NCBI GenBank assembly: GCA_965220875.1
Contig: OZ244849.1
Location: 1,466,401 to 1,530,400 of the forward strand
Direction: 5' to 3'
Length of the DNA: 64,000 bases
From: Gammaproteobacteria bacterium
GTDB lineage: Bacteria > Pseudomonadota > Gammaproteobacteria > UBA4575
A program made the position numbers and the translations under genes. The notes below the pieces were generated by a model. It saw only the letters and a list, made by a program, of their open reading frames with translations. It made no database searches and was not told the origin of the DNA. Below are positions 1-31,471 of this stretch, piece after piece (the first letter of the stretch is position 1; every line of letters begins with the position of its first letter).

Positions 1-237
1 ATGAGTGCGGCCACCATGGGCTTCGGGATTGCGGGGGCCGGCGTGGTGGGCTCGGTGGTGGTCCTGGCCACGCTGTTCCAGCGCATCAAGCGCAATCGCC
101 CGGAAGGCTATTACCAGCAGGGGTTTCGCATCCGCCTGCACGCGTTCGGCCTGTACCGCGCGCCCTGGGTGCTGCGAAGCGGCATCTGGGATCTCGGGAG
201 GACGGCCCATGCGCCGCTACCGGCTCGAAATCGATAA
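1..237 (+). CDS. 3' end of an upstream ICE conjugation-module membrane protein (partial, start outside the window)
   Basis: ORF open at the window start; hydrophobic GFGIAGAGVVGSVVVLATLF segment; about 68% GC matching the downstream ICE genes. Confidence 0.35.
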   Translation: MSAATMGFGIAGAGVVGSVVVLATLFQRIKRNRPEGYYQQGFRIRLHAFGLYRAPWVLRSGIWDLGRTAHAPLPARNR

Positions 238-877
238 CGTGCGCGCCCATGTGCGTTCCCTGTGGGGGGTGATCGGCATGCAGGGTCTCATCATCCTGGC
301 GCTGTGGCTGGGCTGGAGCCAGGCCCCGCATCACCTTCGCATTCACATCCCGCCGGATCTTCGCTCCGGGGCCGTGCTGGGCACGGAGGAAGTCCCTGCC
401 GCCAACGTCTACGCCTTCGCCTTCTACATCTTCCAGCAGCTCAACCGCTGGCCGGACAACGGGGCTGAGGATTACGGCCAGGCGATCTTCCGGATCGCGG
501 CCTACCTGACGCCACGTTACCGCAGCGACCTGGTTGCGGACATGGAACTGAAGGCCCGGCGCGGCGAGCTGGCCTACCGGGTCCGGGGCGTGCAGGAAGT
601 TCCGGGGCACGGCTATGAAGAGCGCCGCGTGGACATCCTTGCCTCCGGGGTCTGGATCGTGTGGCTGGACCTGGACCTGCTGGAGTCGGTGAAGGGGATG
701 ACCGTCAAGCGCACCACCATCCGTTATCCCCTGCGCGTGGTCCGCCAGGCGGTCGATCCCGAGACCAACCCATGGGGCCTGGCACTCGACGGCTATGCGG
801 GCGAGGGCCCGCAGCGCCTGGGCGATGTCGAGCGGACCACACCGGATGAATCCCCGGTTCAAGAGGAGAGTTCCTGA
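209..877 (+). CDS. Conserved ICE conjugative-transfer protein (PFL_4703-like family, ICEclc/PFGI-1-type)
   Basis: ATG at 209 (MRRYRLEIDN...); N-terminal TM helix; synteny with the downstream MPF-G gene set. Confidence 0.5.
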   Translation: MRRYRLEIDNVRAHVRSLWGVIGMQGLIILALWLGWSQAPHHLRIHIPPDLRSGAVLGTEEVPAANVYAFAFYIFQQLNRWPDNGAEDYGQAIFRIAAYLTPRYRSDLVADMELKARRGELAYRVRGVQEVPGHGYEERRVDILASGVWIVWLDLDLLESVKGMTVKRTTIRYPLRVVRQAVDPETNPWGLALDGYAGEGPQRLGDVERTTPDESPVQEESS

Positions 878-1692
878 TGCCTGACTTGCCTTTACCGTCC
901 CCTAAAAAAGCATGGCTGTTCGCCTTGCTGTGGTGTCTTTCAGCCGCGATCCATGCAGGCGCCGACCTGTCTGTACAGGATACTCCCGAACAGATCACTT
1001 GGCGCAAGGCTCCCATCGGGATCCTGCTGGTGGCAGGCGAGGAGCGCCTGGTGCATTTTCCGGACTCGGTGCGCCTCGGCCTGCCCCGATCCCTGGCCTC
1101 TATCCTGCAGGTCCAGAGCATTCACGGCACGCTGTACCTGCAGGCCGGCGAGCCCTTCGAGGCGACCCGGATCCTGGCCTACACGCAGCCCGAGGGACCG
1201 ATCTACGTGCTGGACATCGAGGCGGTGGCCGCGGGCGCAAGCCTGCATGCGCTGCCGGATATCGAGGTGGTCCACGAGCCTGTACAGGCGGAGCTGCCTG
1301 AAGTACAGGGGGAGGGCGGGCGCGCCTCGCCCTGGGGCTATGTCGCCCTGACGCGCTTTGCCGCCCAGAGCCTGTATGCACCTGAGCGCCTGGTCCCGGG
1401 GCAGCCTGGCGTGGTGGCCGTCCCGGTGGATCCCGAGCTGGTCGACCTGGTGCGCGCCGGTCCTCCCGTCCAGGCCATCCCGGTCGCGGCCTGGAAGGCC
1501 GGGCCGTATTACGTGACGGCCGTGCAGCTGACCAATCTCGCACCCCGTCCCGTCGTGCTGGACCCCAGGGTCCTGCAGGGTGCCTGGCGGGCCGCCACGT
1601 TCCAGCACAACCTCCTGATGCCGCAAGGCCACGAGGCCGATACCACGACCGTGTACCTGGTGTCCACGCGGCCCTTCGAGGCCGCACGCTGA
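877..1692 (+). CDS. Conserved exported ICE conjugative-transfer protein (TIGR03749-like)
   Basis: Signal peptide MPDLPLPSPKKAWLFALLWCLSAAIHA; start overlaps the upstream stop; conserved position before the coiled-coil protein and lipoprotein. Confidence 0.55.
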   Translation: MPDLPLPSPKKAWLFALLWCLSAAIHAGADLSVQDTPEQITWRKAPIGILLVAGEERLVHFPDSVRLGLPRSLASILQVQSIHGTLYLQAGEPFEATRILAYTQPEGPIYVLDIEAVAAGASLHALPDIEVVHEPVQAELPEVQGEGGRASPWGYVALTRFAAQSLYAPERLVPGQPGVVAVPVDPELVDLVRAGPPVQAIPVAAWKAGPYYVTAVQLTNLAPRPVVLDPRVLQGAWRAATFQHNLLMPQGHEADTTTVYLVSTRPFEAAR

Positions 1693-1710
1693 CCGGGGAG
1701 GGTATCCGTC

Positions 1711-3114
1711 ATGGCGAGACTCACCCGCAACCGCCTGCTGCCTCTTCTGGCCGGCATCCTTGTCGTGGCGGCCGTGGTTATCGGGATCCGGTCCTGCACC
1801 TCCGGTGAGGAGCCGGCCTTGCTGCTCGATGCCGTGCCCCGGGCCTCGGCCCCGGATGCGGACACGCCTGCCGACACCATCAAGACCCTGACGGCCAATG
1901 TAAGCGGCATGACCTCGCAGCTCAATGCGCTGCGCCAGGACAATGCCGCGCTCAGGCAGGAAAACCGCGAGCTCATCGAAGACCGGACGCAGATCGAGGA
2001 CTCCGTCGTCTCGAGATTGCAGGACATGCTGGATGCCAGGCAGGCTGATCCCGACGATCCTGAAACGATTTCCGCACTCGCCGCCCTGGGCGAACGTCTC
2101 GACGCCCTGGCCAGCCGGTTCGAAGCGGCAGACCCCGCCATGCCGCACACCGGGTATCCCGTGGGCCAAGGCCTTGAGACACCGCATCCCCGCGAGGGTG
2201 ACCGGGAGCCGCCGGTCTGGATCGAACCCCTGGAGCACGGGGCGGGGCCGGCTGATGTGGCCGCACCTCCCGGTCGCGCCTGGTCTGCCCTGGAGCGTGC
2301 CCGCCCGGCCCTGGAACCCGTGATGGAGCATGCCCGTGAGGCGGTCGAGACCGAGGTAGCGGTCTACACCGTGCCGCGCAATGCGACCCTGATCGGGTCG
2401 GTGGGCATGACCGCGCTGGTCGGGCGCGTGCCCATCCAGGGGCAGGTGCAGGACCCGATGCCGTTCAAGGTGATCACCGGCCCGGAGAACCTGGCGACCA
2501 ACGGGCTTCGCATTCCGGGAGTCGAGGGCATGATCTGGAGCGGCACGGCGATCGGCGACTGGACGCTGTCGTGCGTGAGCGGACAGCTGGAGTCGGTCAC
2601 CTTCGTGTTCGAGGACGGCACCATCCGCACCCTGTCCAGCGATGATCCCCGCTCGGTGGGTTTCGGGGGCGGCGGCAATACAAAACCCCTGGGCTGGATC
2701 TCGGATGCCTACGGGGTTCCGTGCGTCAGCGGCGAGCGCAAGACCAATGCGACGGCCTTCCTGGCGCAGCGTATCGGGGTGATGGCCATGGAAGCGGCCG
2801 GACAGGCCGTGGCCCAGGCCGAGACCACCACCCTGGTCAACGACTCCGGGGTGACCTCCAGCGTGGTCTCCGGGGAGACCGGCAAGTACGTGCTCGGCAA
2901 GGCGGCCAGCCGCGGCAGCGAGGAACTCGCCCAGTGGCTGCGCGAGCGCCAGGCGCAGAGCTTCGATGCCGTGTTCGTCCCGGCCGGGGTCGAGCTTGCG
3001 ATCCATGTCGACCATGCCCTCTCCATCGATTTTCAACCCGACGGCAGGAAACTTCATCATGAAACGAATCTTTTGTACAAAAACGCTGCTTCTGTTGGCA
3101 GTGGTCTTGACTAG
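1711..3114 (+). CDS. Conserved ICE conjugative-transfer protein with N-terminal TM anchor and coiled coil (TIGR03752-like)
   Basis: 467 aa; TM LLPLLAGILVVAAVVIGI; coiled-coil LNALRQDNAALRQENRELIEDRTQIED; synteny. Confidence 0.55.
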   Translation: MARLTRNRLLPLLAGILVVAAVVIGIRSCTSGEEPALLLDAVPRASAPDADTPADTIKTLTANVSGMTSQLNALRQDNAALRQENRELIEDRTQIEDSVVSRLQDMLDARQADPDDPETISALAALGERLDALASRFEAADPAMPHTGYPVGQGLETPHPREGDREPPVWIEPLEHGAGPADVAAPPGRAWSALERARPALEPVMEHAREAVETEVAVYTVPRNATLIGSVGMTALVGRVPIQGQVQDPMPFKVITGPENLATNGLRIPGVEGMIWSGTAIGDWTLSCVSGQLESVTFVFEDGTIRTLSSDDPRSVGFGGGGNTKPLGWISDAYGVPCVSGERKTNATAFLAQRIGVMAMEAAGQAVAQAETTTLVNDSGVTSSVVSGETGKYVLGKAASRGSEELAQWLRERQAQSFDAVFVPAGVELAIHVDHALSIDFQPDGRKLHHETNLLYKNAASVGSGLD

Positions 3115-3529
3115 CCTGGCCGGCTGCGCCACCACCAAGGAATCGGTGTTGCCGCAGGACGGCCCCACCATGAAAGCCATCTACGACCGGCACATGAGCG
3201 GCCTGCAGCGCGCCGGTCCCCGGGCCGATATGCGCGGCGCGCCGCTGGCGCAGGCCGGCATTGCCCATTACCACGGTTTCGTGCGCGAGGCGGCGAGCGA
3301 ACTCGAGACCCGGTTTCCGCGCCTGCCCAATCCCACCCTGGTGATGTACGTCTATCCCCACCTGTCCGGACCGCAGCGCAGCCCGGTGCCCGGCTACGTC
3401 ACGACGTTCCCGTTCTATGAACGCATCGAGTATGCCCTGCCCGGGGAGGTGCAGGGGGCCGCTGCAAGTCCACAGGCCCCGCCGCCGGTCGCTTCTCCTC
3501 CAGTCGAAATGCAGGAGCAGCTGTATTGA
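3059..3529 (+). CDS. ICE conjugal-transfer lipoprotein (TIGR03751-like)
   Basis: ATG at 3059; lipobox LAVVLTSLAGC; immediately upstream of the VirB4-like ATPase as in ICEclc-type elements. Confidence 0.6.
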   Translation: MKRIFCTKTLLLLAVVLTSLAGCATTKESVLPQDGPTMKAIYDRHMSGLQRAGPRADMRGAPLAQAGIAHYHGFVREAASELETRFPRLPNPTLVMYVYPHLSGPQRSPVPGYVTTFPFYERIEYALPGEVQGAAASPQAPPPVASPPVEMQEQLY

Positions 3530-6225
3530 GCTTCAATCCTTTCAGGGTGACCAAAGACCCGCCCCTGGCTACCTCATCCGTGCGGCAGCGCTATGCTCGC
3601 CCGCCCTCGTTCACCGACCTGCTGCCCTGGATGGAGTACCTGCCTGGATCGCAGGCCTTCGTGCTGGAGGACGGCGTCAGTCTCGGCGCACTGTTCGAGA
3701 TCGAGCCGGCTGGCTGCGAGGCACGCACGCCGGCGTTCATGAGCGGGCTTCGCGATGCGATCCAGACGGCCCTTTGCGAGGCCCTCCCGGAGCACGACGA
3801 GGCCCCCTGGGTGCTGCAGGTCTACGTGCAGGACGAGCCGAGCCTGGCGCGGTTCAGCCGGCAGCTGGATCACTATCCCGCACCGCCCATCCGTGCCTCG
3901 GAGTACTCAAGACAGTACCAGGCGGGGATGGACGCGCACCTGCAGGCCATCTCGAGGCCGGGCGGGCTGTTTACGGATGCCGCGGTGACCGGCGCTCCCT
4001 GGCGCGGCCAGGTGCGGCGCGTGCGCGCGGTGCTGTACCGCCGTCTTGCGCAGCGCGCCCGGGCGCCTTCTAGCGAGGAGGTGGAGGAAGCGCTGGGAGA
4101 TGTCGCCACCAAGTGGATCGCCGCCCTGGAATCCTGCGGCATCCGGGCCGTGCGGGCGAACGGGCAGGCGTTTTACGAGTGGCTGGCGAACTGGTTCAAC
4201 CCGAACCCGGCCCTGGAGGGGGATTCCGGGCCGCTGCTGGAGCTCGCCCCGTACCCGGGGGATGATAACCTTCCGTTCGGGCATGACCTTGGCGAGCAGC
4301 TGGTGCTGTCGATGCCGCGCTCGGACGCCGGTACGGCCACCTGGTATTTCGATGAACTCCCGCATACCGTCGTGAGCGTCCAGCACCTGCGCCGGGCTCC
4401 GCAGATCGGCCACTTCACGGCCGAGCTGCCGGGCGGGGACCAGGTCTTCTCGCTGTTCGACCGCCTGCCGGAGCACACCGTCATGGCCCTGACCCTGGTG
4501 CTTCGGCCCCAGGACGCCACCCGCAATCATATCGCGCGCATCCGGCGGGCCTCGGTCGGGGATTCGGCGGAGGCCACGCTGACCCGCGAGGATGCCGAGC
4601 AGGTGGAACGGGAGATGGCCCGCAGCAACAAGCTGTACCCGGCCAGCCTGGCCTTCTACGTGCGTGCCGACGATGAAAAGGCCCTGCGGGCCCACCTGAA
4701 CCAGCTCCATGCGCTGCTGCTGCCCAACGGCCTGCAGCCCATCACCCGGGAAGGGGACCTGCTGGCCCTCGACAGCTACCTCCGCAACCTGCCGATGGCC
4801 CACGACGTGGCCCTGGACAAGGGCCGGCGGCGCTCGCGCCTGGTCTTCTCGCGCCACCTGGCCAACCTGATGCCGTTTTACGGCCGCTCGCGCGGCACGG
4901 GCCACCCGGGACTCGTGTTCTTCAACCGCGGCGCCGAGCCGCTGGTGTTCGACCCCCTGCACCGCGAGGACCGCAAGAAGAACGCGCACATGCTGATCCT
5001 CGGCCCGACCGGGGCCGGCAAGTCGGCCCTGCTGGTGTACCTGCTCGAGCAGATGATGGCCCGCCACCGCCCCCGCATCTTCATCATCGAGGCCGGGGGA
5101 TCCTTCTCGCTGCTGGGCCAGCATTTTGCCCACCATGGCCTGTCGGTCCATGCGGTCACGCTCAAGCCGGAGGTCGACATCAGCCTGCCGCCCTTTGCCG
5201 ATGCGCAGCACCTGGCCGGACACCGTCATGGACCCCCGCCACCAGGGACCGATGATGCGGCTCCGGCCGGGCCTTCAGGGGAGGCGGGCGCCGGGCGCGA
5301 CCTTCTCGGCGAGATGGAGATTGCCGCCCGGGTCATGATTACCGGAGGGGATGCGGCAGAGGATGCCCTCATGAGCCGTGCCGACCGCCTGCTGATCCGC
5401 AACGCGATCTTCCTGGCCGCGAAAACCGTACGCGAAGCCGGGCGGGACCAGGTCATCACGCAGGATGTCGTGGATGCGTTCGCGGTGATCGCGGGCGATA
5501 CAAAACTGCCCGAGCCCCGGCGCCTGCGCGCCCTGGAGATGGGCGACGGCATGGCGCTGTTCTGCTCAGGGCTCGCCGGGCACTTTTTCAACCGGCCCGG
5601 TACCCCCTGGCCCGAGGCCGATGTCACGATCCTGGAAATGGGCATCCTGGCGAGGGAGGGCTACGAGGACCAGCTGACCGTGGCGTATCTGTCCATCATG
5701 AGCCACATCAACGACCTGGTGGAACGCCACCAGAGCGATGAACGGCCCACGCTGGTCGTGACCGACGAGGGGCACATCATCACCACCAACCCCCTGCTGG
5801 CCCGCTACGTGGTGAAGATTACCAAGATGTGGAGAAAGCTCGGCGCCTGGTTCTGGATTGCGACCCAGAACCTGGAGGACTTCCCCGATGCGAGCCGCAG
5901 GATGCTCAACATGATGGAGTGGTGGCTGTGCCTGGTCATGCCGAAGGAAGAGGTCGAGCAGATCGCACGGTTCCGGGAGCTCAGCGAGGAGCAGCGCAGC
6001 CTTTTGCTGTCTGCGCGCAAGGAGCCGGGCAAGTACGTCGAGGGAGTAGTGCTGTCGGACAACCTGGAGGCGCTGTTTCGAAACGTGCCGCCGCCGCTGA
6101 CGCTGGCGCTCGCCATGACCGAGAAACACGAGAAGGCCGAGCGCGCACGGATCATGCGTGAACAGGGATGCACGGAGCTGGAAGCCGCGTACGCGGTGGC
6201 CGAACGGATCGCGAAGGGCCGTTGA
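3526..6225 (+). CDS. traC: Conjugative transfer ATPase, VirB4/TraC-like (PFL_4706-type)
   Basis: 899 aa; Walker A GPTGAGKS; Walker B-like LVVTDEGH; the size and gene context are typical of MPF-G ICE ATPases. Confidence 0.8.
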   Translation: MSFNPFRVTKDPPLATSSVRQRYARPPSFTDLLPWMEYLPGSQAFVLEDGVSLGALFEIEPAGCEARTPAFMSGLRDAIQTALCEALPEHDEAPWVLQVYVQDEPSLARFSRQLDHYPAPPIRASEYSRQYQAGMDAHLQAISRPGGLFTDAAVTGAPWRGQVRRVRAVLYRRLAQRARAPSSEEVEEALGDVATKWIAALESCGIRAVRANGQAFYEWLANWFNPNPALEGDSGPLLELAPYPGDDNLPFGHDLGEQLVLSMPRSDAGTATWYFDELPHTVVSVQHLRRAPQIGHFTAELPGGDQVFSLFDRLPEHTVMALTLVLRPQDATRNHIARIRRASVGDSAEATLTREDAEQVEREMARSNKLYPASLAFYVRADDEKALRAHLNQLHALLLPNGLQPITREGDLLALDSYLRNLPMAHDVALDKGRRRSRLVFSRHLANLMPFYGRSRGTGHPGLVFFNRGAEPLVFDPLHREDRKKNAHMLILGPTGAGKSALLVYLLEQMMARHRPRIFIIEAGGSFSLLGQHFAHHGLSVHAVTLKPEVDISLPPFADAQHLAGHRHGPPPPGTDDAAPAGPSGEAGAGRDLLGEMEIAARVMITGGDAAEDALMSRADRLLIRNAIFLAAKTVREAGRDQVITQDVVDAFAVIAGDTKLPEPRRLRALEMGDGMALFCSGLAGHFFNRPGTPWPEADVTILEMGILAREGYEDQLTVAYLSIMSHINDLVERHQSDERPTLVVTDEGHIITTNPLLARYVVKITKMWRKLGAWFWIATQNLEDFPDASRRMLNMMEWWLCLVMPKEEVEQIARFRELSEEQRSLLLSARKEPGKYVEGVVLSDNLEALFRNVPPPLTLALAMTEKHEKAERARIMREQGCTELEAAYAVAERIAKGR

Positions 6226-6701
6226 TGGTGTACAGCCCGGACAGCGCGAGGGGCAGGGCCGTACCGGGGTGCGTGCTCACCGCATTCCTGGTGTTGTTAC
6301 TGGCACTGGTTCTGGTTCCAGGCAAGCCTGTGCGGGCCGGGGAGGCCCCGCGCATCGAGGTCTTCGTGACCGAAGAATTCCTGCCGCTTGCCGCCACGCA
6401 GGGGGCCACGGTCTACGTGATCGACGGCATCAGCCAGCTGCAGGTCGGGCTCTCCCGGGAACTGCCCGGGGACCCCAGGGCAGCCAGGGCGCTGGTCCTT
6501 GAGCGCTTTGCACGCATGGAGGCAGGGTCTGGCAGGCAGCTGGAGAATGCGGCACAGGGACTGGCGCGTGCCATGCACTACGGCATCGACCGCTACCCTG
6601 CGATCGTCTTCGACGGGCAGGCCGTGGTGTATGGCATTCCCGACATCGCTGCGGCCAGCCGGTTCTACCGCGAGTGGCAAAAGGCGCAGGCCCGCCCATG
6701 A
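6225..6701 (+). CDS. Exported ICE protein (TIGR03757-like)
   Basis: ATG overlaps the traC stop (TGATG); signal peptide LTAFLVLLLALVLVPGKPVRA. Confidence 0.5.
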   Translation: MVYSPDSARGRAVPGCVLTAFLVLLLALVLVPGKPVRAGEAPRIEVFVTEEFLPLAATQGATVYVIDGISQLQVGLSRELPGDPRAARALVLERFARMEAGSGRQLENAAQGLARAMHYGIDRYPAIVFDGQAVVYGIPDIAAASRFYREWQKAQARP

Positions 6702-7717
6702 AAACGCTGCACTGCCTCCTGCTGATCGTGCTGTTGTGGCTGCCTCCCGTGGCCCATGCGGGGTCGATCACCACCTCGCAGATCGTTGCGCGAACCAGTG
6801 ATGCGGCCCTGGCCTGCATGCGCTGGATGCCGGTCGGGGTGTGTTTCTGGCTGCGCTGCTCGCTCTCTGGCTGCAGGGTCAAGAGTTCGCTCAAGGTGGG
6901 TCATTACCAGCCGGATGCGGTCATCAGCAGCTACAACGAGCTGGGCGGCAATCCCTGGGTGGAGATTCGCAGTGCGCTAGGCCTTGTGCAGCGCAGCGCG
7001 GCCAGCGGGCTGCTTGGCAGCCTGCTGAACGTGCCAGCCGGCAGTGCCGGCAACCGCACCGAGGGCGGGCGGGGGAGCCGGGATCACCGCAACCTGGTGT
7101 TCCGGGAGGTGGACGTGATCGGCCATCCCCTGCAGTCCCTGTCCGGACTCGTCGCCACCGCCGGTTACCTGTGCCGTGCACAGACCCGGTCCTACTTTCC
7201 CTATTTCCAGTCAGTGCTCGATGCGCTCGCCTGGCGCACGGGGGCCGTGGAGATGCTTTACCCCGCAAGCCTGGCGCCCGGGCTTCGCGAGATCGGGTCC
7301 TGGCCGGCGCAGAGCTGGGGCAGCGTCTATCCACGCACCGGCTGGGTCATCCAGGCCGAGGAGCCCAAGGCGGCGGCCATTGTCGCACAGCGTGCCGCAG
7401 ATATCGTTACCCGCACGCACCAGCCCCACGTCTACGTGCCGATGACCGGCAGGTCCGGCTCCGGACAGAAGGTCTGGCGGCCCGGCCCCCTGCTTGAAGA
7501 CGACCCCGACACCGGGGAATGGCAGATGCTCCTCCCGAAGCCGGAGTCGGATTGCGGCCGGTTCGGGACGAATGACCTGGCCAGTGTTTCCGGCTGGGGC
7601 GGCGGGCGCATCGATCCCGGGGGAGATTATGTGTGGACCCTGTGGCGGCCCTACAGCTGCTGTCGCGATCGCGGCTCCTTCCTGTTCGAGATCAGCTGGA
7701 CACGGTACCCGCCATGA
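6698..7717 (+). CDS. Exported ICE protein (PFL_4710-like, TIGR03756)
   Basis: ATG 6698; signal peptide MKTLHCLLLIVLLWLPPVAHA; cysteine-rich; stop overlaps the next start (ATGA). Confidence 0.5.
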   Translation: MKTLHCLLLIVLLWLPPVAHAGSITTSQIVARTSDAALACMRWMPVGVCFWLRCSLSGCRVKSSLKVGHYQPDAVISSYNELGGNPWVEIRSALGLVQRSAASGLLGSLLNVPAGSAGNRTEGGRGSRDHRNLVFREVDVIGHPLQSLSGLVATAGYLCRAQTRSYFPYFQSVLDALAWRTGAVEMLYPASLAPGLREIGSWPAQSWGSVYPRTGWVIQAEEPKAAAIVAQRAADIVTRTHQPHVYVPMTGRSGSGQKVWRPGPLLEDDPDTGEWQMLLPKPESDCGRFGTNDLASVSGWGGGRIDPGGDYVWTLWRPYSCCRDRGSFLFEISWTRYPP

Positions 7718-9054
7718 ACACCTCGTACTTCCCCCGGATTCTTCTGTCGTGTGCGCTCATCATGATCAGCCAAGGAGCGGGCGCCGTAAAGGGGCCGACC
7801 GAGGACAGCCTGTGGTACTACGAGATCGGGGGCGCGCAGCCGGTCTCGACCCCGCTCAACCCCTCGGTGGTCTCGGTCACGCTCGGCGGGTCCGCGCAGT
7901 TGGGGCTGGGCTACAGTTGCGGCAAGTTCGATCCGGTGGCGGCGGTCACGAATACGCTCAACGAGATCGGTGCCGGTGCAGACCGCATGATGGATGCGAT
8001 GACGGTGGCGGCCACCAGTGCCATCGCCGCGCTGCCTGCGCTGATCCTGCAGCGCGCCAACCCGGGGCTCTACGACCTGTTCCAGAACGCCCTGATCAAG
8101 GCCGAGGAAACGCTGAGGCTGGCCACCAAGTCCTGTGAGCAGATGGAGGCGGAGATCGCCCAGGGCAAGAATCCCTATGCCGACCTGGTGGTACTGTCCA
8201 AGGGCAACGACTGGAAGGTGCAGATGGGCATCCCCGGCAACGATGCCGTCAGCGCCAAGATCTCGGTGGAGACCGCCAGCGGCGACAACGGGGTCCCCTG
8301 GATTGGCGGCCAGGCCGGCGGCAGCGGCCAGCCGGTGCTGGAGTTCACCGGGGATATCGTCGAGGCCGGCTACAACATCCAGATGAACCGGGCCGTGACG
8401 GACACGAGTCCCATACCGGCGTCCTCCTCCGCACGGCTGTCCGAGCTCTGGGCAACGCCCGCGCTGGCCCGGGACTGGGCGGTGGACGTGGTGGGCGAGA
8501 ACATCGTGACCACCTGCGACACCTGCCGCAAGGACAGCATCCCGGGCACGGGCCTGTTGCCGAGGCTGTTCGAGGAGTCCGCAACCGTCACTACAGACAT
8601 CCAGGCCCTGGTGCAGGGCACGGCCCCGCCCACCCTGGCCAATCTCGAGAAGGTCCGGGCGCCCAGTATCGCCATGACCCGGCAGGTGATCGAGGCCATC
8701 CGCGAGATGCCGGCCTCCGAGCAGGGCCTGATCATGAACCGCCTGGTGTCCGAGATCAGCACGGCGCGCACGGTGGAGAAGGCCCTCCATGTCCGCAGGC
8801 TCCTGCTGTCCGGCCGGCAGGTGCCCGAGGTCTACGCCACGCAGGTCGCCCGCGAGCATGCGGACCAGGCCATCGCGGAACTCGACCGCGAGATTGAGAA
8901 CCTGCTGTTCGAGACCCGCGTGCGAAAGGAGATCGTATCCGGCACCGTCACCACCCTGCTCGAGCGTGCCGCAGCGAGACGGCAGGGCTCGCTCACCGCC
9001 CCCGAGGTGCCGACGCTGGATCCCCATCCGTTGGGGGGCGGGCGTGTCCGGTAG
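7714..9054 (+). CDS. Exported ICE protein (PFL_4711-like, TIGR03755)
   Basis: ATG 7714 (MNTSYFPRILLSCALIMISQGAGA signal peptide); 446 aa; synteny. Confidence 0.5.
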   Translation: MNTSYFPRILLSCALIMISQGAGAVKGPTEDSLWYYEIGGAQPVSTPLNPSVVSVTLGGSAQLGLGYSCGKFDPVAAVTNTLNEIGAGADRMMDAMTVAATSAIAALPALILQRANPGLYDLFQNALIKAEETLRLATKSCEQMEAEIAQGKNPYADLVVLSKGNDWKVQMGIPGNDAVSAKISVETASGDNGVPWIGGQAGGSGQPVLEFTGDIVEAGYNIQMNRAVTDTSPIPASSSARLSELWATPALARDWAVDVVGENIVTTCDTCRKDSIPGTGLLPRLFEESATVTTDIQALVQGTAPPTLANLEKVRAPSIAMTRQVIEAIREMPASEQGLIMNRLVSEISTARTVEKALHVRRLLLSGRQVPEVYATQVAREHADQAIAELDREIENLLFETRVRKEIVSGTVTTLLERAAARRQGSLTAPEVPTLDPHPLGGGRVR

Positions 9055-9418
9055 CCCCCGGCTCCGGCGAAAGGGTCTGGTGTTTTTCACCGCCATCGCC
9101 GTACTGCTGACGGCAGGGTCTGGTTTTTTGCTCATGCACCGCCTGCAGCTCGAATCCGTGCAGTCCATCCGACAGGGCATGCAGGCCTGGAAGCCCGTCC
9201 TGGGGGCCGTGCGCGGGGCCGTGATCCTCTTGGTGGCGCTGGGCTGGAATCGCCTGCTCGCAGTGCTCGCCGGCACAGGCATGCTCCATCCTGCCAGGGC
9301 AGGGCAACTCGCTGCGCTGCGCTGGCGCATCGTGGCCTGGATGGTGATGCTGGAACTGGTGCTGGGGCAGGGCGTGCTGGTGCGCATCATGCAACTTGCA
9401 ACCGGGGCGGCATCATGA
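9044..9418 (+). CDS. Small integral membrane ICE protein
   Basis: GTG 9044; about 124 aa with three predicted TM helices; stop overlaps the traG start. Confidence 0.4.
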   Translation: MSGSPRLRRKGLVFFTAIAVLLTAGSGFLLMHRLQLESVQSIRQGMQAWKPVLGAVRGAVILLVALGWNRLLAVLAGTGMLHPARAGQLAALRWRIVAWMVMLELVLGQGVLVRIMQLATGAAS

Positions 9419-10980
9419 GTGTCGACAGTTATCTTGAGCTTTTCACCACCCTGTTCGGCTGGACCTTCTACGGCATCCTGTGGGACGTGCTGGCCAGCAC
9501 CGGCATCGTCTACCTGCCGTTCCTGGGAATCCTGGTCGATCACTGGCGTGAGCCGGCACAGGGTGCGCAGATGGAGCTTGCCAGCGGCCTGTCGCTGCGG
9601 CGCATGGAGATCGAGCTGTTCATCGCACTGCTGGTGGTGGTCCTTGCCGGACAGCCTGCCGCTCTGACGCCGCTGAATGCCTCAACCCTGTCCTACACGC
9701 CGCCGCCCACCCTCCAGAATCCAACCCCGGCCACGGCCACCGTGGCCTCGTCACAGAGCACCTACGGCACGACCGGCTTTACCGGCACGGTGGCGACCGT
9801 CAACGTGCCGGTCTGGTGGTACGGGGTGATCGCGCTGAGTTCCGGCCTCAATCACGCCATCGTCGAGGGCCTGCCAAGCGTCTCGGACATGCGCACCTAC
9901 GAGCAGCAGGCGCGCCTCGCCACCATTGCCGACCCGCGCCTGCGCCAGGAAGTCAGCGACTTTTTCAGCCAGTGCTACATCCCGGCACGCTCCAGGTACC
10001 GGGCCCGAAGGCCGGACACGCCCGCCATCCAGAACATCCTCGCCACCTACGGCACCGATGATCCGGACTGGATGGGATCCCATGTGTATCGCTACACCCC
10101 GGGGTATTACGATACGCTGCGCCCGGTGCACGCGGTCACGGGCTGGGCGTACAACACCGCCCGGGACACCGAGTACGACCCAAGCGCACCGCCTGCCTGG
10201 GGCAAGCCGACCTGCAAGCAGTGGTGGGAGGACTCGGGAATTGGGCTTCGGGGAAAACTGGTCAATGAGGCGGACGCCACGTCTGCCGGGTTCTCCGGCC
10301 TGGTGGTGGCCATTGCCCCGACACTGGCCAGCGAGCAGCAAAACGATGCCGTGGCCAGGACCGTGCTCACCAACGCACCACCGTCCTGGTCGAGCAACGA
10401 GCTTCTTGTAAACAACGCGTCCGGCCCGGGACTGGTCAGCTCCGCAGGCTCCACCATCAAGAGCGGGCTTGCGGCAGGCGGCATCATTACGGCCTCGGCC
10501 CTGTTCTCGGTCATGATGACCGCCGTGCTCCAGGCCCTGCCCATGATGCAGGCGATCATCCTGCTGGGTATCTATGCGCTACTGCCGCTGCTGGTGGTGT
10601 TGTCCCGGTATTCCATCTCCATGCTGGTCGTCGGGGCCGTGGCGGTCTTTACCGTCAAGTTCTGGAGCGTTCTGTGGTACCTGGCGATGTGGGTGGACCA
10701 GAACCTGATCCTCTCCATGTACCCGGACGTCAACTTCTTCCTGCAGGTGTTCGCCAATCCCGGCGAGCATGATTTCAAGCGCATGCTGCTGAACATGATT
10801 ACCACCAGCCTCTACCTGGGGCTGCCGCTGCTGTGGAGCATCATGATGGCCTGGGCGGGGATCCGGGCAGGGCAGTCACTGGAGCATGCGATGCAGCCGC
10901 TCAGCACCCCGGTTCATGATGCGGGCAGGCAGGGCGGGGCCTTCGGGAAGGCGACAATAGCCCGGGGCGTGAAGAGGTGA
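9415..10980 (+). CDS. traG: TraG-like conjugal transfer membrane protein (TraG N-terminal domain family)
   Basis: 521 aa polytopic membrane protein; last gene of the high-GC block; GC content drops sharply at 10981. Confidence 0.55.
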   Translation: MSVDSYLELFTTLFGWTFYGILWDVLASTGIVYLPFLGILVDHWREPAQGAQMELASGLSLRRMEIELFIALLVVVLAGQPAALTPLNASTLSYTPPPTLQNPTPATATVASSQSTYGTTGFTGTVATVNVPVWWYGVIALSSGLNHAIVEGLPSVSDMRTYEQQARLATIADPRLRQEVSDFFSQCYIPARSRYRARRPDTPAIQNILATYGTDDPDWMGSHVYRYTPGYYDTLRPVHAVTGWAYNTARDTEYDPSAPPAWGKPTCKQWWEDSGIGLRGKLVNEADATSAGFSGLVVAIAPTLASEQQNDAVARTVLTNAPPSWSSNELLVNNASGPGLVSSAGSTIKSGLAAGGIITASALFSVMMTAVLQALPMMQAIILLGIYALLPLLVVLSRYSISMLVVGAVAVFTVKFWSVLWYLAMWVDQNLILSMYPDVNFFLQVFANPGEHDFKRMLLNMITTSLYLGLPLLWSIMMAWAGIRAGQSLEHAMQPLSTPVHDAGRQGGAFGKATIARGVKR

Positions 10981-11232
10981 AGGATTTTCCTGATGGTGTT
11001 TTGGCTCCGGAACTTCCCATACCTGTAAAGTTATTCGAAATTATCAAGAGTGGTGTGGAAGCAATACTAAATTTTGTTCGTAAAGGAAGTGGACCTGAAT
11101 AGAACTGTTGATTCACAAGTTAATTTATTTTTGCGTTGGTAAAACGGGTGAAGTAATTGGCCTGAATCGGATTGATGGTCCTATTTATTTATCGATGCGA
11201 CACTAAAGCAACCAAAACAGCCTGTACAAGAT

Positions 11233-11277
11233 AGCAAGCCTCGTGCTGCCCCCCTAAACCTGGATCAAGTTTAGGGG
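11233..11277. other. Perfect 17-bp-stem hairpin (GTGCTGCCCCCCTAAAC / GTTTAGGGGGGCAGCAC)
   Basis: Palindrome seen directly in the AT-rich spacer between traG and the IS; no downstream T-run. Confidence 0.4.
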
Positions 11278-11538
11278 GGCAGCACAACACTTCAAATTGA
11301 GTGTAAGCACGTCTCTAAAGAATATTTTGCAAGACTTAAACGATCATCGCCCACTGTTAGGAGCAATTTTCTGCATACCCAAATACTAAATTCACTTTCT
11401 GTTCCCTTAGTTCTGACAAATGTTTCGTTCCCCTATCATCAGTGCCATACTATCAAGAAATTAAATCGTAATTTCAAGTTATGGGCTTGACTTGTGAGTT
11501 TAGCTGTATTATCATGCAGTTAACACAGGAGAGAAGCC

Positions 11539-12426
11539 ATGAACCTACTACAAATCTTTCACAAATTCCCGGACCAAGAGGCTTGTATCGAACATCTTGA
11601 GAAAGTGCGCTGGGGCGATCACCCATGCTGCCCGCACTGTGGCGGCATTCGGGTTGCCCACAAAGCAGATTCAGACCGTATTGGACGCTGGAATTGCCAC
11701 GATTGCAAGTCCAGCTTCAACGTGCTTTCAGGCACGATCTTCGAGAAAACCAGAGTTCCCCTACAAAAGTGGTTCATGGCAATCGGCCTGATTGTCAACG
11801 CCAAGAAAAGTCTCTCCAGTTGCCAGCTTGCCCGTGATTTGGAACTCACCTATCAGACTGCTTGGTTCATGCAGAAGCGCATCCGCGCTGAAATGGCCAG
11901 CAAGCAGAGCACCATCACCTTGCAGGGTATCATCGAGGCTGACGAAACCTACGTAGGCGGCAAGCCTCGCAAGTTCAATCGCCGTAAGGACGATGATAAC
12001 CAGAAGCCCAATGGCAGAGGCCGTGCCACCAAGAAAACGCCTGTAATCGGGGCTGTGGAGCGTGGCGGCAAGGTAGTTGCCCGCGTAGCTTCAGACCTGA
12101 CAGGCCGAGGCGTACTCAAGTTCATCAAGGACACTGTAGACACTGCTGGATCGGTGTTGATCACCGATGAGTACCGCTCCTACAGGACCGTACGCAAGAC
12201 GATTCCACACTCGGTTATCAATCACAGCAAAGCCTATGCAGAGGGCGTGGTTCACACCAATACGATTGAAGGCTTTTGGGCACTGATCAAACGTTCATGG
12301 TACGGCTCGCATCACCACTACAACCGAGAGCATATCCCGCTCTATATCGCTGAAACCGCTTGGAAGTACAACCACAGGGAGGATGACAACGCATTCGGTT
12401 CATTCGTGCGCGGGTGCTTCGCATGA
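11539..12426 (+). CDS. IS1595-family DDE transposase (N-terminal zinc-ribbon; HTNTIEGFWALIKR motif)
   Basis: 295 aa; CPHCGG...CHDCK zinc ribbon; EADETYVGGK and TDEYRSY/HTNTIEGFW motifs typical of ISXO2/IS1595 transposases. Confidence 0.85.
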   Translation: MNLLQIFHKFPDQEACIEHLEKVRWGDHPCCPHCGGIRVAHKADSDRIGRWNCHDCKSSFNVLSGTIFEKTRVPLQKWFMAIGLIVNAKKSLSSCQLARDLELTYQTAWFMQKRIRAEMASKQSTITLQGIIEADETYVGGKPRKFNRRKDDDNQKPNGRGRATKKTPVIGAVERGGKVVARVASDLTGRGVLKFIKDTVDTAGSVLITDEYRSYRTVRKTIPHSVINHSKAYAEGVVHTNTIEGFWALIKRSWYGSHHHYNREHIPLYIAETAWKYNHREDDNAFGSFVRGCFA

Positions 12427-14021
12427 ATCACCTGTACTACGGGGATTGCCTGACCATCATGCAGGAAATGCCCCTTGCCAGCGTGGACCTGATCTACCTT
12501 GATCCGCCGTTCAAATCAGACAAGGACTACCACAGCATCTACAAGGATGAGACGGGCCGCCCGCTGCCAGACCAGATCGAGGCGTTCTGCGATATGTGGA
12601 CGCTCACTCCAGAGCGCGAGCGGGCCATCAGGCAAATGCCCGCCATGCTTCGGGAGACTGGCATTGATGACAGCGTGGCAGAGTTCTGGCGCATTTGGAT
12701 GAATGCACTGCGCAAGACGCAACCAGACCTGCTGGCCTACCTGTCCTATATGGTGGAGAGGCTTATTTGGATGAAGGGCCTGCTGCGTCCTGCTGGCTCG
12801 ATCTGGCTTCATTGTGATCCCGAAGCCAGCCACTACATCAAGGTCATGCTTGACGGGATATTTGGGCACAACAACTTCCGCAATGAGATTACCTGGAAGC
12901 GTACCAGCTCGCACAGCGACTCAGGGACAATGGGCTGGGTGCATGACGTTCTGCTGTACTACACCAAGGGTGAAAAGTTCACTTTCAACACCGAGCACGC
13001 ACCGCATGACAAGGACTACATAGCCTCTCACTACCGGCACAAGGATAAGGCTGGCCGGAGATTCAGAACTGATAATGTCACGGCTGGCGGCCTGACTGGT
13101 GGCGGGTATGAGTATGAATGGAACGGAGTGAAAAAATGTTGGCGTTACCCTGAACATCGAATGCAGGAGTTACATGATGCGGGCAGGTTGCGATATACGC
13201 GCACAGGCACAGCTGAATATATTCGGTACTTGGATGAATCGGATGGAGTGCCCGTATCGGATTGGTGGGGCGATATTCCGCCTGTCAATTCGCAAGCCAA
13301 GGAACGTATGGGATACAGGACACAGAAGCCACTGAAACTTCTGAAACGCATCATCGGGGTGTCCAGCAACGAGGGAGACGTGATATTTGATCCATTCTGT
13401 GGCTGCGCCACGACCTTGGAAGCAGCCCACGCAATGGAACGCAAATGGATCGGGGTTGATATTGCTATTCATGCTGTCAAACGGGTAGCCAGAATCAGGC
13501 TGCAGGACAGGCTGGGTCTGGTAGAGGGCAAGGATTTTGAAATTGATGGGGTGCCACGCGATCTAGAGGGAGCCAAGGACCTGTGGGAACGAGACAAGTA
13601 CCACTTCCAAAAATGGGCCATAGAGGAGGTGGACGGGTTTGCCACAACCAAACGCACAGCCGATGGTGGTATTGATGGGAGACTCTATTTCGGTGACGTG
13701 GACAGGGATCTGAAAAGCATGGTAATCGAGGTCAAGGGCGGCAAGAATGTGAACATTGCAGACTTGCGGGCATTGCATAGCGTCATGGAACGTGACGATG
13801 CAGAAATGGCTGGCCTGATCATCATGGAGCCACTAGGCAGCCGGAAGGCCAAAAACTTTCATAGGCTGGTTGCCGAGGCGGGTGATATGACAGTACGAAG
13901 CAGGCCGTTTCCCAGAATGCAAATACTGTCAGTGCCAGAGATACTGGCAGGCAAGCGATTTGATACCCCGTACCCGCGTGGCAAGTCGGACCTAGTTCAA
14001 CCAGATATTGGACAGTTCTAG
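12423..14021 (+). CDS. Beta-class amino (N6-A/N4-C) DNA methyltransferase with a C-terminal PD-(D/E)xK-like domain
   Basis: DPPF (motif IV) near the N-terminus and FDPFCGCATT (motif I) downstream, i.e. beta-class order; C-terminal GIDGRLYF...VIEVKGGK nuclease-like motif; start overlaps the tnp stop (ATGA). Confidence 0.75.
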   Translation: MNHLYYGDCLTIMQEMPLASVDLIYLDPPFKSDKDYHSIYKDETGRPLPDQIEAFCDMWTLTPERERAIRQMPAMLRETGIDDSVAEFWRIWMNALRKTQPDLLAYLSYMVERLIWMKGLLRPAGSIWLHCDPEASHYIKVMLDGIFGHNNFRNEITWKRTSSHSDSGTMGWVHDVLLYYTKGEKFTFNTEHAPHDKDYIASHYRHKDKAGRRFRTDNVTAGGLTGGGYEYEWNGVKKCWRYPEHRMQELHDAGRLRYTRTGTAEYIRYLDESDGVPVSDWWGDIPPVNSQAKERMGYRTQKPLKLLKRIIGVSSNEGDVIFDPFCGCATTLEAAHAMERKWIGVDIAIHAVKRVARIRLQDRLGLVEGKDFEIDGVPRDLEGAKDLWERDKYHFQKWAIEEVDGFATTKRTADGGIDGRLYFGDVDRDLKSMVIEVKGGKNVNIADLRALHSVMERDDAEMAGLIIMEPLGSRKAKNFHRLVAEAGDMTVRSRPFPRMQILSVPEILAGKRFDTPYPRGKSDLVQPDIGQF

Positions 14022-14328
14022 TTGAATCAGGTATTTTAAGCCCATAACTTGAAATTACGCAATATAATTGTGGACTTTCATCATTCCATCTTGGATTTCA
14101 GAATCCGACTGCTCTTTAGACAAGACCTCTATATTTTTAAGCACTCTGCGTCCAGTATGTTTATCTACACCCAGAGTATCCAAGGTGATATTGAAAGCAA
14201 GCATTATCCCCTTGATCGTATTTTCGCTTGTATTATCAGGAGTGGATAAATAGCTTGCCTCTTCTAGATTGGCCATATTTCTTCCTTCATCGTGAAGTTA
14301 GTTCACGCATTGATATTCAGTGATGCAT

Positions 14329-15309
14329 TTAGGACTCATTTTCATCATTGTCCGAATTGGGTTGGTTGAGAGGTGAATCAGAACGATAAGGCACTCTTCC
14401 TGCAGGATAGGTATGTGATATTTTTTCTAGATGGAGATCTTGGTCATCAAAGAAAATATGTGGCCTAAACGCTTTCAATATTTTTTCTTTTTTCACCCCT
14501 CCTAAGAAGAAAACTTCATCTACGTAGACTCCCCAATATCGGAGGGTTTTAATTACACGCATTTCCGCTGGTGCGTTTCTGGCTGTGACAATCGCGATTC
14601 GCACTGGAGAAAATTCGACACTAAAAGGAAGTCGATCTTGCAATCGAGCGAGCTTACGTAAAAGCTTTGCATATGGGCCATCTTTCATAGGTATGTCTTG
14701 CTGTGCATCTTCCACTCTTTGAAATTCTTCTAGCCCTTTTGCCTTAAATACAAGCTCACTGCTTTCATCAAACAAAACCCCATCCCCATCGAAAGCAATT
14801 CGGACTTGGCCTCCAGGAATTTCACTACTTTCAGCTGGAGGAGGTTTGACAATTGCAGCAGCACACTCCCCTTCATTAATGACCTTTTGTGCATCATGTG
14901 TATTTGTTGTCAAGAATAAATCCACATCAAATGCTTCTAAGTAATCGACTACAGATTCGCCACCCGTATATGCAAGTCTAGTTATAGGTAGGTCCAACCT
15001 CCTTATGTTGTTTAATACGCGTACACCAGTTTCAGGGCTATTTCGCGACATCACAACAACTTCTACCAGAGGCGACTCAGCATTCGGTTCGTACCCGTTA
15101 AGTTTTAAAAGTGCTTTAACTAATGGCATACCAGTTCCAGGTTCAAGAGAATCATCCTCATGCTCAAGCATAAAACTGCGGTACTCTCTAATGGCTGTAT
15201 CACGATTCTCTTCGTATTTTTGACGAAATACTGAATCTGCTTCGCTTAGGTCAAACAAAGCGGTGGCAGATATACCGATTACGAGTGTATCTGAAAGATT
15301 AGTTGGCAT
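14329..15309 (-). CDS. HAD-superfamily 5'-nucleotidase (cN-IA/PF06189-like)
   Basis: 326 aa; HAD motif I IAFDGDGVLFDES; overall resemblance to bacterial cytosolic 5'-nucleotidase family. Confidence 0.55.
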   Translation of the reverse strand: MPTNLSDTLVIGISATALFDLSEADSVFRQKYEENRDTAIREYRSFMLEHEDDSLEPGTGMPLVKALLKLNGYEPNAESPLVEVVVMSRNSPETGVRVLNNIRRLDLPITRLAYTGGESVVDYLEAFDVDLFLTTNTHDAQKVINEGECAAAIVKPPPAESSEIPGGQVRIAFDGDGVLFDESSELVFKAKGLEEFQRVEDAQQDIPMKDGPYAKLLRKLARLQDRLPFSVEFSPVRIAIVTARNAPAEMRVIKTLRYWGVYVDEVFFLGGVKKEKILKAFRPHIFFDDQDLHLEKISHTYPAGRVPYRSDSPLNQPNSDNDENES

Positions 15310-15331
15310 TTTTCATGAGGCACACCTTTAT

Positions 15332-15844
15332 TCAGGCCCTAGAGTTACGGCTGCTAGTGCGTGTTGCCGGATCATCATAATCAGGGTTTCGCTCCACATC
15401 ACCCGTGTCGTTGACGCGGAATGGACGGCCTTTGGTTAGTCGGATCATATATTTTTGCCTTTCTCTATCTTTCCGGTTACTGATTGCTTCGACGATGGTT
15501 GCAGTATCAATACTTGTGTAATCTACCTGGCCTTCTTTGTCATGGTTTTTCCCGTATCGCGGTGGAAAGTCTAGGAAAGATTGGAATACACGCATGACAC
15601 GCTCGTCATATTGATCAGGATTCTTGAGAGCAAGATCAGCCAAAGTGACAGCACCCGCCGTGCGTCCTATGTAGGAGCTTCCTCGGATATTGCTATCCAA
15701 TAGCTCGGTTCCTACAACGAACTGATCTTCCAATCGATTCCTGTCGGCTACTTTAAAGCGCTGATGGGCAGTTATGAGTGCCAAGGCGGCAACTGCGGGC
15801 AACGCCAACTGCACCAACAACTCCGTCATGTAGACACATGTCAT
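15332..15844 (-). CDS. Membrane-anchored hypothetical protein (possible partner of the 5'-nucleotidase)
   Basis: N-terminal TM LLVQLALPAVAALALITA; 22 bp upstream of the nucleotidase gene on the same strand. Confidence 0.45.
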   Translation of the reverse strand: MTCVYMTELLVQLALPAVAALALITAHQRFKVADRNRLEDQFVVGTELLDSNIRGSSYIGRTAGAVTLADLALKNPDQYDERVMRVFQSFLDFPPRYGKNHDKEGQVDYTSIDTATIVEAISNRKDRERQKYMIRLTKGRPFRVNDTGDVERNPDYDDPATRTSSRNSRA

Positions 15845-16111
15845 GGTTTAGGCATCACACTTAGTATGTGCACTGATGTGAGTTCGGCTTTTGTCATCAT
15901 GCCATTTTTACAAACGCTTTGAATCTATTTATGATAGGTGATCACCAGTTTGATAATTTTTTCGCTAGCATTCAACATGAGAGTTACCTCCTGCAGTTAT
16001 GATGAAAACTTGTATTTTTATCAGATCAGGTTGAAACTCCAAACACTAGTTGCTTTTTGGTCATTTTAGTAAACATATCAAAGGTACCCTTGAACAGAAA
16101 GAGACAGCAGT

Positions 16112-16867: not shown

Positions 16868-16952
16868 GTTTGAAATGTTCTGCATTAACGTTATGTCATC
16901 ACGGCATATCTAGCATCCAGAAACAGCTAAGTGTCATTAGGTGTAACACAAA

Positions 16953-17699: not shown

Positions 17700-17885
17700 T
17701 GCTCACATAATCTTTTGGTGTCTAAAGATAAGTTGTTGACAATTAGCCTAGCTTTTATAAGCACCATCATCTGAGATTTGAAATTGAAGCGGGCCAGCAA
17801 GAATTCCGCGATACCGTTAATGATATATTTGGGAATTATATATTTAAGTTTACAAAGCATCGAAGAAAGGTGCTGATTGAAATAA

Positions 17886-18194: not shown

Positions 18195-18248
18195 AACATT
18201 CTCCTCCGTTGCTGTGTCTTTGGTGTATTAACTTAGTATAATATACTA

Positions 18249-24729: not shown

Positions 24730-24731
24730 CA

Positions 24732-31432: not shown

Positions 31433-31471
31433 GATTCGCCATGAAAGATAATTCATATCCTCTGTACATTG

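Follow-up and report, generated by a model that had tools for sequence, protein, structure and literature searches.

A probable boundary between conserved core and variable cargo directly downstream of traG in an MPF-G conjugation module

Why does a conserved, high-GC conjugation module stop abruptly after its traG gene, shortly before an insertion sequence (IS)? The question is raised by a 64,000-nt stretch of contig OZ244849.1 (positions 1,466,401 to 1,530,400; assembly GCA_965220875.1, Gammaproteobacteria bacterium, UBA4575), referred to here as the window. Its first 10,980 nt carry part of an integrative and conjugative element (ICE) with mating-pair formation genes of type G (MPF-G), and an IS1595-family element, IS 'A', follows at 11467-14059. 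A first-pass annotation of the same DNA had concluded that IS 'A' truncated the ICE after traG. Comparison with related modules points to another answer: the break is likely to be a junction between the core of the element and a defence-rich hotspot for variable cargo, a boundary that IS 'A' would not have created. In kind the system is a known one, a pKLC102/PFGI-1-class core with a hotspot on its TraG side, plus one IS-associated rearrangement inside the hotspot.

The break after traG in ten related copies

The GC content was 67.1% over positions 1-10980 and 39.7% over 10981-11466, reproducing the fall at 10981 that the first-pass annotation had reported (39.7% measured compared with about 38% claimed). 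A scan for TraG in species-representative genomes yielded 80 loci, and protein searches and contig look-ups supplied more. Nine close copies of the module (L001, L002, L003, L019, L082, L084, L087, L088 and L090) were obtained, with TraG proteins 88-97% identical to that of the window. They came from metagenome scaffolds and from chromosomes of about 2 Mb that are metagenome-assembled genomes (MAGs) of 'Gammaproteobacteria bacterium' (OZ243969.1, OZ242278.1 with two copies, OZ244850.1 and one chromosome of 2.15 Mb). The scaffolds of some relatives bear the codes ROBB21-1 and NGUY21-1, which we take to denote sponge microbiome studies. The core of the nine copies had 62-70% GC, falling to 40-55% directly after traG.

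Alignments anchored on traG ended between 34 nt before and 26 nt past the stop codon in 44 of the 45 pairwise comparisons among the ten copies; the exception was the pair L088 and L090, whose alignment extended to 88 nt past the stop. In the window, homology to other module copies reached about 22 nt past the stop, to approximately position 11002 (alignment with L084). The module therefore did not end at the IS, as had been proposed, since homology had already ceased about 464 bp before it. None of the nine other copies carried IS 'A' at the post-traG position and all nine shared the boundary, so the claim that the IS truncated the ICE after traG was not sustained. Ten copies had ten different downstream contents, and copies with 97% identical TraG already had unrelated cargo, indicating that, in this branch, turnover of the cargo outpaces divergence of the core. 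The composition break after traG is thus probably a fixed edge between a conserved core and a variable cargo region. An abrupt end of high-GC conserved DNA at traG is the architecture expected of this ICE class and is not evidence of truncation; in such elements a sharp break in GC and homology after traG would mark the junction of core and cargo.

The 22 nt that follow the traG stop (10981-11002, + strand) form an AT-rich tail, AGGATTTTCCTGATGGTGTTTT, which was kept in the closest copies. It was common to the window, L084, L087, L088 and L090, after which these sequences diverged, and homology of the window to all other copies ended here. The tail may be an ancestral intergenic remnant or a site used for cargo exchange.

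The conserved core and its variable cargo

Positions 1-10980 are the distal half of the type IV secretion system (T4SS; mating-pair formation) core of an ICE of the pKLC102/PAPI-1/PFGI-1/ICEHin1056 class (MPF-G). Eleven collinear genes were found, all on the + strand, the first of which was cut by the window edge; the others started at 209, 877, 1711, 3059, 3526, 6225, 6698, 7714, about 9044-9080 and 9415. Eight of them exceeded the curated NCBIfam cut-offs of PFGI-1-class ICE families (TIGR03746, 03749, 03752, 03751, 03744 (traC), 03757, 03756 and 03755), and start and stop codons overlapped at six junctions (877, 3526, 6225, 6698, 7714 and 9415). The gene order was that of the annotated pKLC102 record NC_019202.1, typed MPF_G/MOBH in PLSDB, namely TIGR03750, 03746, 03749, 03752, 03751, ATPase, 03757, 03756, 03755, small open reading frame (ORF) and TraG. 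The earlier description of eleven collinear, mostly coupled genes in MPF-G order through traG, belonging to an ICEclc/PFGI-1-type module, was confirmed by these NCBIfam and Pfam matches, the six overlaps and the pKLC102 order.

The partial first gene (1-237) was the 3' end of a TIGR03750/DUF3487-type conjugal transfer gene, with frame 1 open to a stop at 235-237; its equivalent in the related copy L081 overlaps the next gene by 29 nt. There followed a PFL_4703-family ICE gene (209-877; TIGR03746/DUF2895, 278.8 bits against a cut-off of 137, with a Pfam DUF2895 match), whose start was picked by comparison with L081, and a TIGR03749-family gene (877-1692; DUF3438, 231.5 bits against 138.8), whose product was 100% identical to database protein P0255. 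Next came a TIGR03752-family ICE gene (1711-3114; 453.2 bits against 241) and a gene for a conjugal transfer lipoprotein of family TIGR03751 (3059-3529; 119.2 bits against 77.7), the start of which was picked by comparison with relatives. The conjugative transfer ATPase TraC/VirB4 (3526-6225; traC_PFL_4706, TIGR03744, 1320.6 bits, Pfam TraC_F_IV) was full length, its match spanning model positions 4-891 of 892. No insert separated traC from the TIGR03757-family gene (6225-6701; DUF1525, NCBIfam and Pfam matches), so that the hotspot on the traC/traU side was empty in the window. The remaining genes encoded a TIGR03756-family protein (6698-7717; TraU, 351.5 bits, Pfam TraU), a TIGR03755-family protein (7714-9054; 462.5 bits against 270), a small conserved protein of 112-124 aa without family match (9080-9418, start at 9044 or 9080) and TraG (9415-10980; TraG_N family, Pfam 266 bits), which was full length and closes the conserved T4SS core. 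In L081, L082, L084, L087, L088 and L090 the position of the small protein was occupied by a gene of 112-137 aa, and in pKLC102 by one of 115 aa. The genes expected to the left of the window start, those for the coupling protein TraD and for DUF2859, DtrJ-like, DUF3262 and DUF2976 proteins, were found upstream of the module in its relatives L081 and L082.

The core genes were intact, with ratios of nonsynonymous to synonymous substitution rates (dN/dS) of 0.08-0.40 against six relatives and of 0.08-0.15 for traG; to judge from these ratios, the core is under purifying selection. Relatedness along the core was mosaic. L019 was the closest relative over 2-6201 (89.4% nucleotide identity) and L003 the closest for traC (92% amino acid identity), and the window shared a Cas9 region with L002 that was 94.7% identical beside a core only 75-85% identical. 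Such mosaic similarity points to recombination, replacement or exchange among co-circulating elements. The host appears to be a low-GC organism with a genome of about 2 Mb.

On the cargo side, the first DNA was an AT-rich spacer (11003-11466) specific to the window; none of the related loci matched it, either as nucleotides or in translation. A 41-aa ORF (10977-11102) spanned the junction of traG and spacer. The distance from the traG stop to IS 'A' was 486 bp, and the previously reported AT-rich stretch of this length with a perfect 17-bp hairpin was found again. The hairpin arms lay at 11243-11259 and 11269-11285, around a 9-nt loop. Its predicted energy was -36.2 kcal/mol (z = -6.07), and none of 200 shuffled sequences folded as well. 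The hairpin was single-copy in the window, was missing from the first 80 related loci and had no Rfam family match. A canonical terminator was ruled out because no T tail follows.

Low-GC cargo (14055-21775) lay between IS 'A' and a CRISPR array, with Pfam matches to 5'-nucleotidase, HNH and BrnA families; the Pfam scan covered likely-gene ORFs of at least 120 aa and left out overlapping and opposite-strand ORFs. Directly right of IS 'A', a - strand operon of a 73-aa ORF, a 170-aa ORF and a PDC-S08 candidate defence gene was observed, the last belonging to 5'-nucleotidase family PF06189 (14329-15309; PADLOC 6e-124, a near end-to-end match). It was followed by an HNH nuclease gene (16112-16867; Pfam HNH), a lipoprotein-like gene (18851-20296) and a BrnA antitoxin gene (20644-21021; Pfam BrnA). 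A 96-aa ORF (20472-20762) overlaps the BrnA gene from upstream; it had no PADLOC match and fell outside the Pfam scan. A second, shorter paralogue of the HNH nuclease gene was present 28 kb away (44150-44521; 77-86% nucleotide identity over about 350 nt). The DNA of 14055-21775 was absent from L002, where 0.85 kb separated traG from the first CRISPR repeat, giving the window 10.8 kb of extra DNA between traG and array. L002 nevertheless had the window's order of traG, CRISPR, cas1/cas9 and cytochrome, without IS 'A'.

The other copies carried different genes after traG. L001 had AAA_13, DUF2130 and type I HsdM genes; L002 had HigBA, then a 29-repeat CRISPR array and cas genes; and L003 had HNH, DndB-like and PAPS-reductase-like genes. 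A methyltransferase, HNH, GmrSD and XamI were found in L019, DUF8426-Mrr in L082, and a ParA-like gene, an MmeI-type restriction-modification (RM) gene, a DEAD helicase and T5orf172 in L084. L087 carried MTaX1-HNH, a 1302-aa methyltransferase, AAA_23 and SNF2, L088 a type II MvaI/BcnI RM system, and L090 HicAB. Together with the window, the defence and toxin-antitoxin (TA) types after traG comprised RM types I, II and IIL, Dnd-like, GmrSD, CRISPR-Cas9, PDC-S08, HigBA, HicAB and a BrnA-type antitoxin. Richness in defence genes was judged from gene content, without a statistical enrichment test.

Variability extended beyond the close copies. The 80 loci of the genome scan comprised five of the ten close copies and 75 more distant relatives, and no cluster of downstream ORFs occurred in more than 10 of them; the recurrent clusters were type I RM, TIR, DUF499, SNF2, DUF4007 and CusCBA efflux. 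Distant free-living relatives (Porticoccus, Haliea, Sedimenticola and others) had TraG proteins 73-82% identical to that of the window and an equally variable downstream 10 kb. When window positions 10981-21800 were compared in translation with the 80 loci, and positions 10981-64000 with the downstream flanks of the nine close copies, matches were confined to L002, to scattered genes of L088 and L090, and to IS and methyltransferase genes that are unrelated. The genes common to the window and L088 or L090 stood at different distances from traG. Rearrangement is evidently frequent in the post-traG neighbourhood, on the side of the cargo and not of the core.

Cargo in this position is normal in the reference elements of the class, and comparison with these two, pKLC102 and ICEHin1056, gave no indication of truncation. 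In pKLC102, ParDE and a variable stretch of 17.5 kb follow traG, and a MobH relaxase and integrase stand at the element end; as in the window, variable DNA begins directly after traG in the pKLC102/PAPI-1 family. TA pairs lay directly after traG in L002 (HigBA), L090 (HicAB) and pKLC102 (ParDE). However, pKLC102 TraG was only about 29% identical to that of the window, and the 67% GC core in a background of about 45% is unlike the pKLC102/PAPI-1 family, as are the type II CRISPR-Cas9 locus and the methyltransferase-carrying IS1595 elements among the cargo. ICEHin1056 of Haemophilus influenzae has the same TIGR037xx gene set, is also typed MPF_G/MOBH, and carries 11.7 kb of cargo including Tn3-blaTEM between traG and mobH-int; unlike in the window, its 03757/03756/03755 genes are inverted downstream of traG, and its TraG was about 29% identical. 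A small convergent ORF follows traG in pKLC102, ICEHin1056 and free-living marine relatives; it is absent from the window, and a search for the ORF of the reference elements found nothing in the window or the related loci. ICEclc and PFGI-1 were likened to the module by families alone, through the shared NCBIfam 'PFL_47xx' set named after PFGI-1 genes; the main cargo of ICEclc adjoins its integrase.

The SXT/R391 ICEs illustrate the same concept, exchanging unrelated phage-defence cargo at fixed intergenic positions in a conserved core. They form a different ICE family (MPF-F, MOBH) with hotspots at different positions. Closer to the present case is 'GI-Hotspot 2' of PAPI-1-type islands, which runs from TraG to a putative helicase and is a hotspot for diverse defence systems; it is the most diverse defence hotspot of PAPI-1, PAGI-5 and PAGI-1 and is also rich in type II TA pairs (PMC12629846, 2025). 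The left boundary at traG, the unrelated cargo of each copy and the defence and TA content were all matched here. The TraG-side defence hotspot known from Pseudomonas islands would thus extend to a distant branch associated with marine habitats and symbionts.

The following sequence of events would account for these observations. In this ICE class, cargo sits between traG and the MobH relaxase and integrase, and in this lineage the post-traG position would be a fast-turnover hotspot, filled mostly with defence genes (RM, CRISPR-Cas9, PDC-S08, TA pairs and methyltransferase-carrying insertion sequences). If DNA was repeatedly inserted, replaced and deleted in the short intergenic region behind traG while purifying selection preserved traG itself, each copy would be left with its breakpoint no more than a few tens of nucleotides from the stop codon and with unrelated DNA beyond. 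IS 'A' would be one inserted element of the hotspot, later rearranged within the cargo and standing 464 bp from the core boundary.

IS 'A' and the rival explanations

IS 'A' (11467-14059, + strand, 2593 bp) resembles IS1595 transporter ISs in its DDE_Tnp_IS1595 transposase with an N-terminal zinc ribbon, its short terminal inverted repeats and its single passenger gene (Pfam DDE_Tnp_IS1595, Zn_ribbon_IS1595, N6_N4_Mtase and Mrr_cat). The transposase gene (11539-12426) was intact (DDE_Tnp_IS1595 130.3 bits, zinc ribbon 42.3 bits). The passenger (12414-14021; PADLOC type II methyltransferase) encodes an N6/N4 DNA methyltransferase fused to a C-terminal Mrr-like domain, which distinguishes it from such ISs. 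The terminal inverted repeats CGTAATTTCAAGTTATGGGCTT (11467-11488 and 14038-14059) matched at 22 of 22 bp, and the flanks, AATTAAAT and CAATATAA, showed no 8-bp target duplication. By contrast, in two control elements the same CG...CG termini were directly bordered by a perfect 8-bp duplication. These controls were IS 'B' of the window (TCTTTTTT) and an element in locus L091 (AAAAAATA), located at 3924-6752 in a related 2.03-Mb chromosome and with a transposase 75% identical. The absence of a duplication at IS 'A', unlike IS 'B', had been noted in the first-pass annotation and is real; the two are not copies of one IS as stated there, for their transposases were 50-59% and their methyltransferases 44.6% identical and their terminal repeats differed.

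Drift of the flanks is an unlikely reason for the missing duplication, as the 22-bp ends remain identical. Allowing an offset of 1 nt gave a degenerate duplication (AATTAAAT and AATATAAT, 6 of 8 positions); this was rejected, being at chance level in AT-rich DNA and in conflict with the CG...CG termini of the two controls. Outer repeats around IS 'A', as expected from nesting inside another element, were looked for and not found. A composite transposon of IS 'A' and IS 'B' around 14060-22114 was ruled out, the two being different elements with different ends and mismatched outer flanks. The 73-aa - strand ORF mentioned above enters the right terminus of IS 'A' and stops two codons inside it, consistent with a disrupted gene. 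Since the controls retain their duplications, the flanks of IS 'A' suggest that it probably took part in a rearrangement after insertion, inside the cargo region. The event may have been an adjacent deletion, an inversion or recombination with another copy.

A larger role for IS 'A', in which an adjacent deletion or rearrangement took away the distal ICE (cargo, relaxase, integrase and att site) and left 486 bp, would account for the perfect 22-bp ends lacking the duplication that two related elements have, for the 73-aa ORF cut off inside the right terminus and for the lack of a relaxase or integrase downstream, in a region rich in IS1595 sequences (seven genes or fragments in 64 kb). We nevertheless consider it quite improbable. 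An IS-mediated deletion would end exactly at the IS terminus and not at the traG stop, but the core boundary lies 464 bp away and is common to nine copies without IS 'A'. Further, L002 has neither IS 'A' nor a relaxase or integrase in its interval from traG through CRISPR-Cas9 to the cytochrome gene, indicating that their absence there predates IS 'A'. It is exceedingly improbable that the junction is a chimera joining a high-GC contig to a low-GC genome. GC does indeed fall very steeply from the stop codon onwards, from 67% to 40%; however, nine further copies, which derive from four or more complete-chromosome MAGs and from four or more separate metagenome assemblies, showed the same architecture, synteny on the low-GC side linked the window with L002, and the first 22 nt beyond the stop recurred in L084. 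With the same junction in this many independent assemblies, the assembly artefact that the first-pass annotation had allowed for is excluded.

What weighs against a core/cargo junction favours another reading, in which the module would be what is left of an old ICE, with no relaxase or integrase, or else a T4SS that the host recruited, and would be fixed at one chromosomal neighbourhood. As previously claimed, no relaxase, integrase or att site followed within the window: the Pfam scan, tblastn of the pKLC102 and ICEHin1056 MobH and integrase proteins against the whole window (best E-value 0.39) and a check for tRNA repeats were negative for a MobH relaxase, an integrase and an att repeat over the 53 kb that follow traG, a distance exceeding the cargo length of both reference elements. 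A search of 84 related loci revealed no relaxase in the 10 kb that follow traG, and the Pfam-annotated gene calls of L087-L090 contained none either; no related locus had an integrase within that distance. The far boundary seen in the pKLC102 family (a conserved helicase or MobH relaxase gene, with the integrase) was not found in the window's 53 kb, nor its helicase or relaxase gene within 10 kb in related loci, and it was thus never observed in this lineage; the relaxase may lie outside the window. The GC content of the cargo side also matched the window background of about 45%, from which the core departs, and cytochrome/Tll0287, globin, porin-like and hicA genes recurred near traG in L002, L088 and L090 in differing order. 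The recurring genes could belong to the host chromosome and not to cargo; beside a remnant or recruited module, the DNA after traG would be chromosome of these symbiont-like genomes that insertion sequences have scrambled and defence islands have entered. Purifying selection on the T4SS genes (dN/dS 0.08-0.40) fits a recruited system as well.

A remnant or recruited T4SS is still rather unlikely. L081 and L082 have TraD and the DtrJ-like gene upstream, an arrangement shared with transfer-proficient elements, one 2.14-Mb genome contains at least two full copies plus a traG fragment, and the mosaic similarity among copies indicates ongoing exchange. The divergent core beside the nearly identical Cas9 region of L002 misfits simple vertical inheritance, and the reference elements also carry more than 10 kb of cargo before their relaxase. 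The intact core under purifying selection, the upstream coupling protein in relatives and the mosaic exchange favour a living element, possibly still complete, with a large or rearranged variable region behind the core/cargo junction. A retained module that lacks a relaxase has a low probability in our estimation; if relaxase and integrase were truly absent from these genomes, conjugation machinery would have been retained in small genomes. It is similarly doubtful that the high-GC MPF-G modules as a group, with several copies per genome, are retained machines without linked relaxase or integrase instead of transferring ICEs, the traG end serving as a fixed anchor for rapidly exchanged defence islands that include type II CRISPR-Cas9. 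The hosts of such machines would probably be invertebrate-associated, low-GC gammaproteobacteria with genomes of about 2 Mb.

IS 'B', the CRISPR-Cas9 locus and segments farther downstream

The CRISPR array bordering the low-GC cargo was a remnant (21776-21943, + strand) of one degenerate and two intact 36-nt repeats with two spacers; the syntenic array of L002 had 29 repeats of the same sequence. The second transporter IS of the IS1595 family, IS 'B' (22115-24760, + strand, 2646 bp), had a frameshifted transposase gene and a gene for a 545-aa methyltransferase, and its 8-bp duplication occupied 22107-22114 and 24761-24768. It sits inside cas2: excising the IS and one duplicate restored an intact Cas2 of 112 aa, and L002 carried the unoccupied site. 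The type II cas1 (24968-25930; Pfam Cas_Cas1) and cas9 (25852-29595; RuvC_III, Cas9_a and HNH_4) genes followed on the - strand, in a region syntenic with L002 (94.7% nucleotide identity over 5070 nt). On the face of the sequence, the CRISPR adaptation module is probably inactive here.

IS 'A', IS 'B' and the L091 element are three diverged IS1595 elements in which a transposase gene precedes a gene for an N6/N4 DNA methyltransferase of 535-545 aa. Their transposases were 50-75% identical to each other. Both methyltransferases of the window had a C-terminal domain resembling Mrr or an inactive restriction endonuclease, and that of L091 had only N6_N4_Mtase recorded. The transposase family was abundant in metagenomes (3770 proteins at E <= 1e-60), and the elements look like a widespread family of methyltransferase-carrying transporter ISs. 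The seven IS1595 transposase genes or fragments in the window (at 11539, 22189, 31514-31720, 39094-39521, 42925-43737, 44876-45280 and 58822-59643) were mostly degraded or frameshifted, suggesting heavy IS activity in this genome.

A high-GC block (31251-41147; 59.6% over 31901-38750) encoded a GPP34-like protein, a multihaem cytochrome c, a Tll0287-like protein and an autotransporter with Pro-Asp/Pro-Glu tandem repeats (37589-37816). Inverted repeats of 122 nt (31251-31372 and 41026-41147; 79% complementary) and IS1595 fragments bracketed the block, which may be a mobile or invertible segment bounded by ISs. A further pair of inverted repeats (230 nt, 80% complementary) delimited 45466-53704 and lay inside two paralogous genes for TbpB-like lipoproteins (45424-46260, + strand; 52913-53830, - strand). 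The segment between these genes had 56% GC and contained genes for a solute-binding protein and a porin-like protein, a hicA-like sequence, a permease-like gene and tRNA-Pro(GGG). This tRNA gene (51701-51777), the sole one in the window, has its 3' end facing the module and the permease-like, porin-like and solute-binding protein genes as neighbours; its 3' half was unrepeated in the window, and on present evidence it was ruled out as an att site. Near the right end, after several ORFs without family match (56191-58700), a gene at 62017-63540 encoded a 507-aa protein with Tubulin_2/Tubulin GTPase domains (TubZ-like), unusual for a gammaproteobacterial chromosome.

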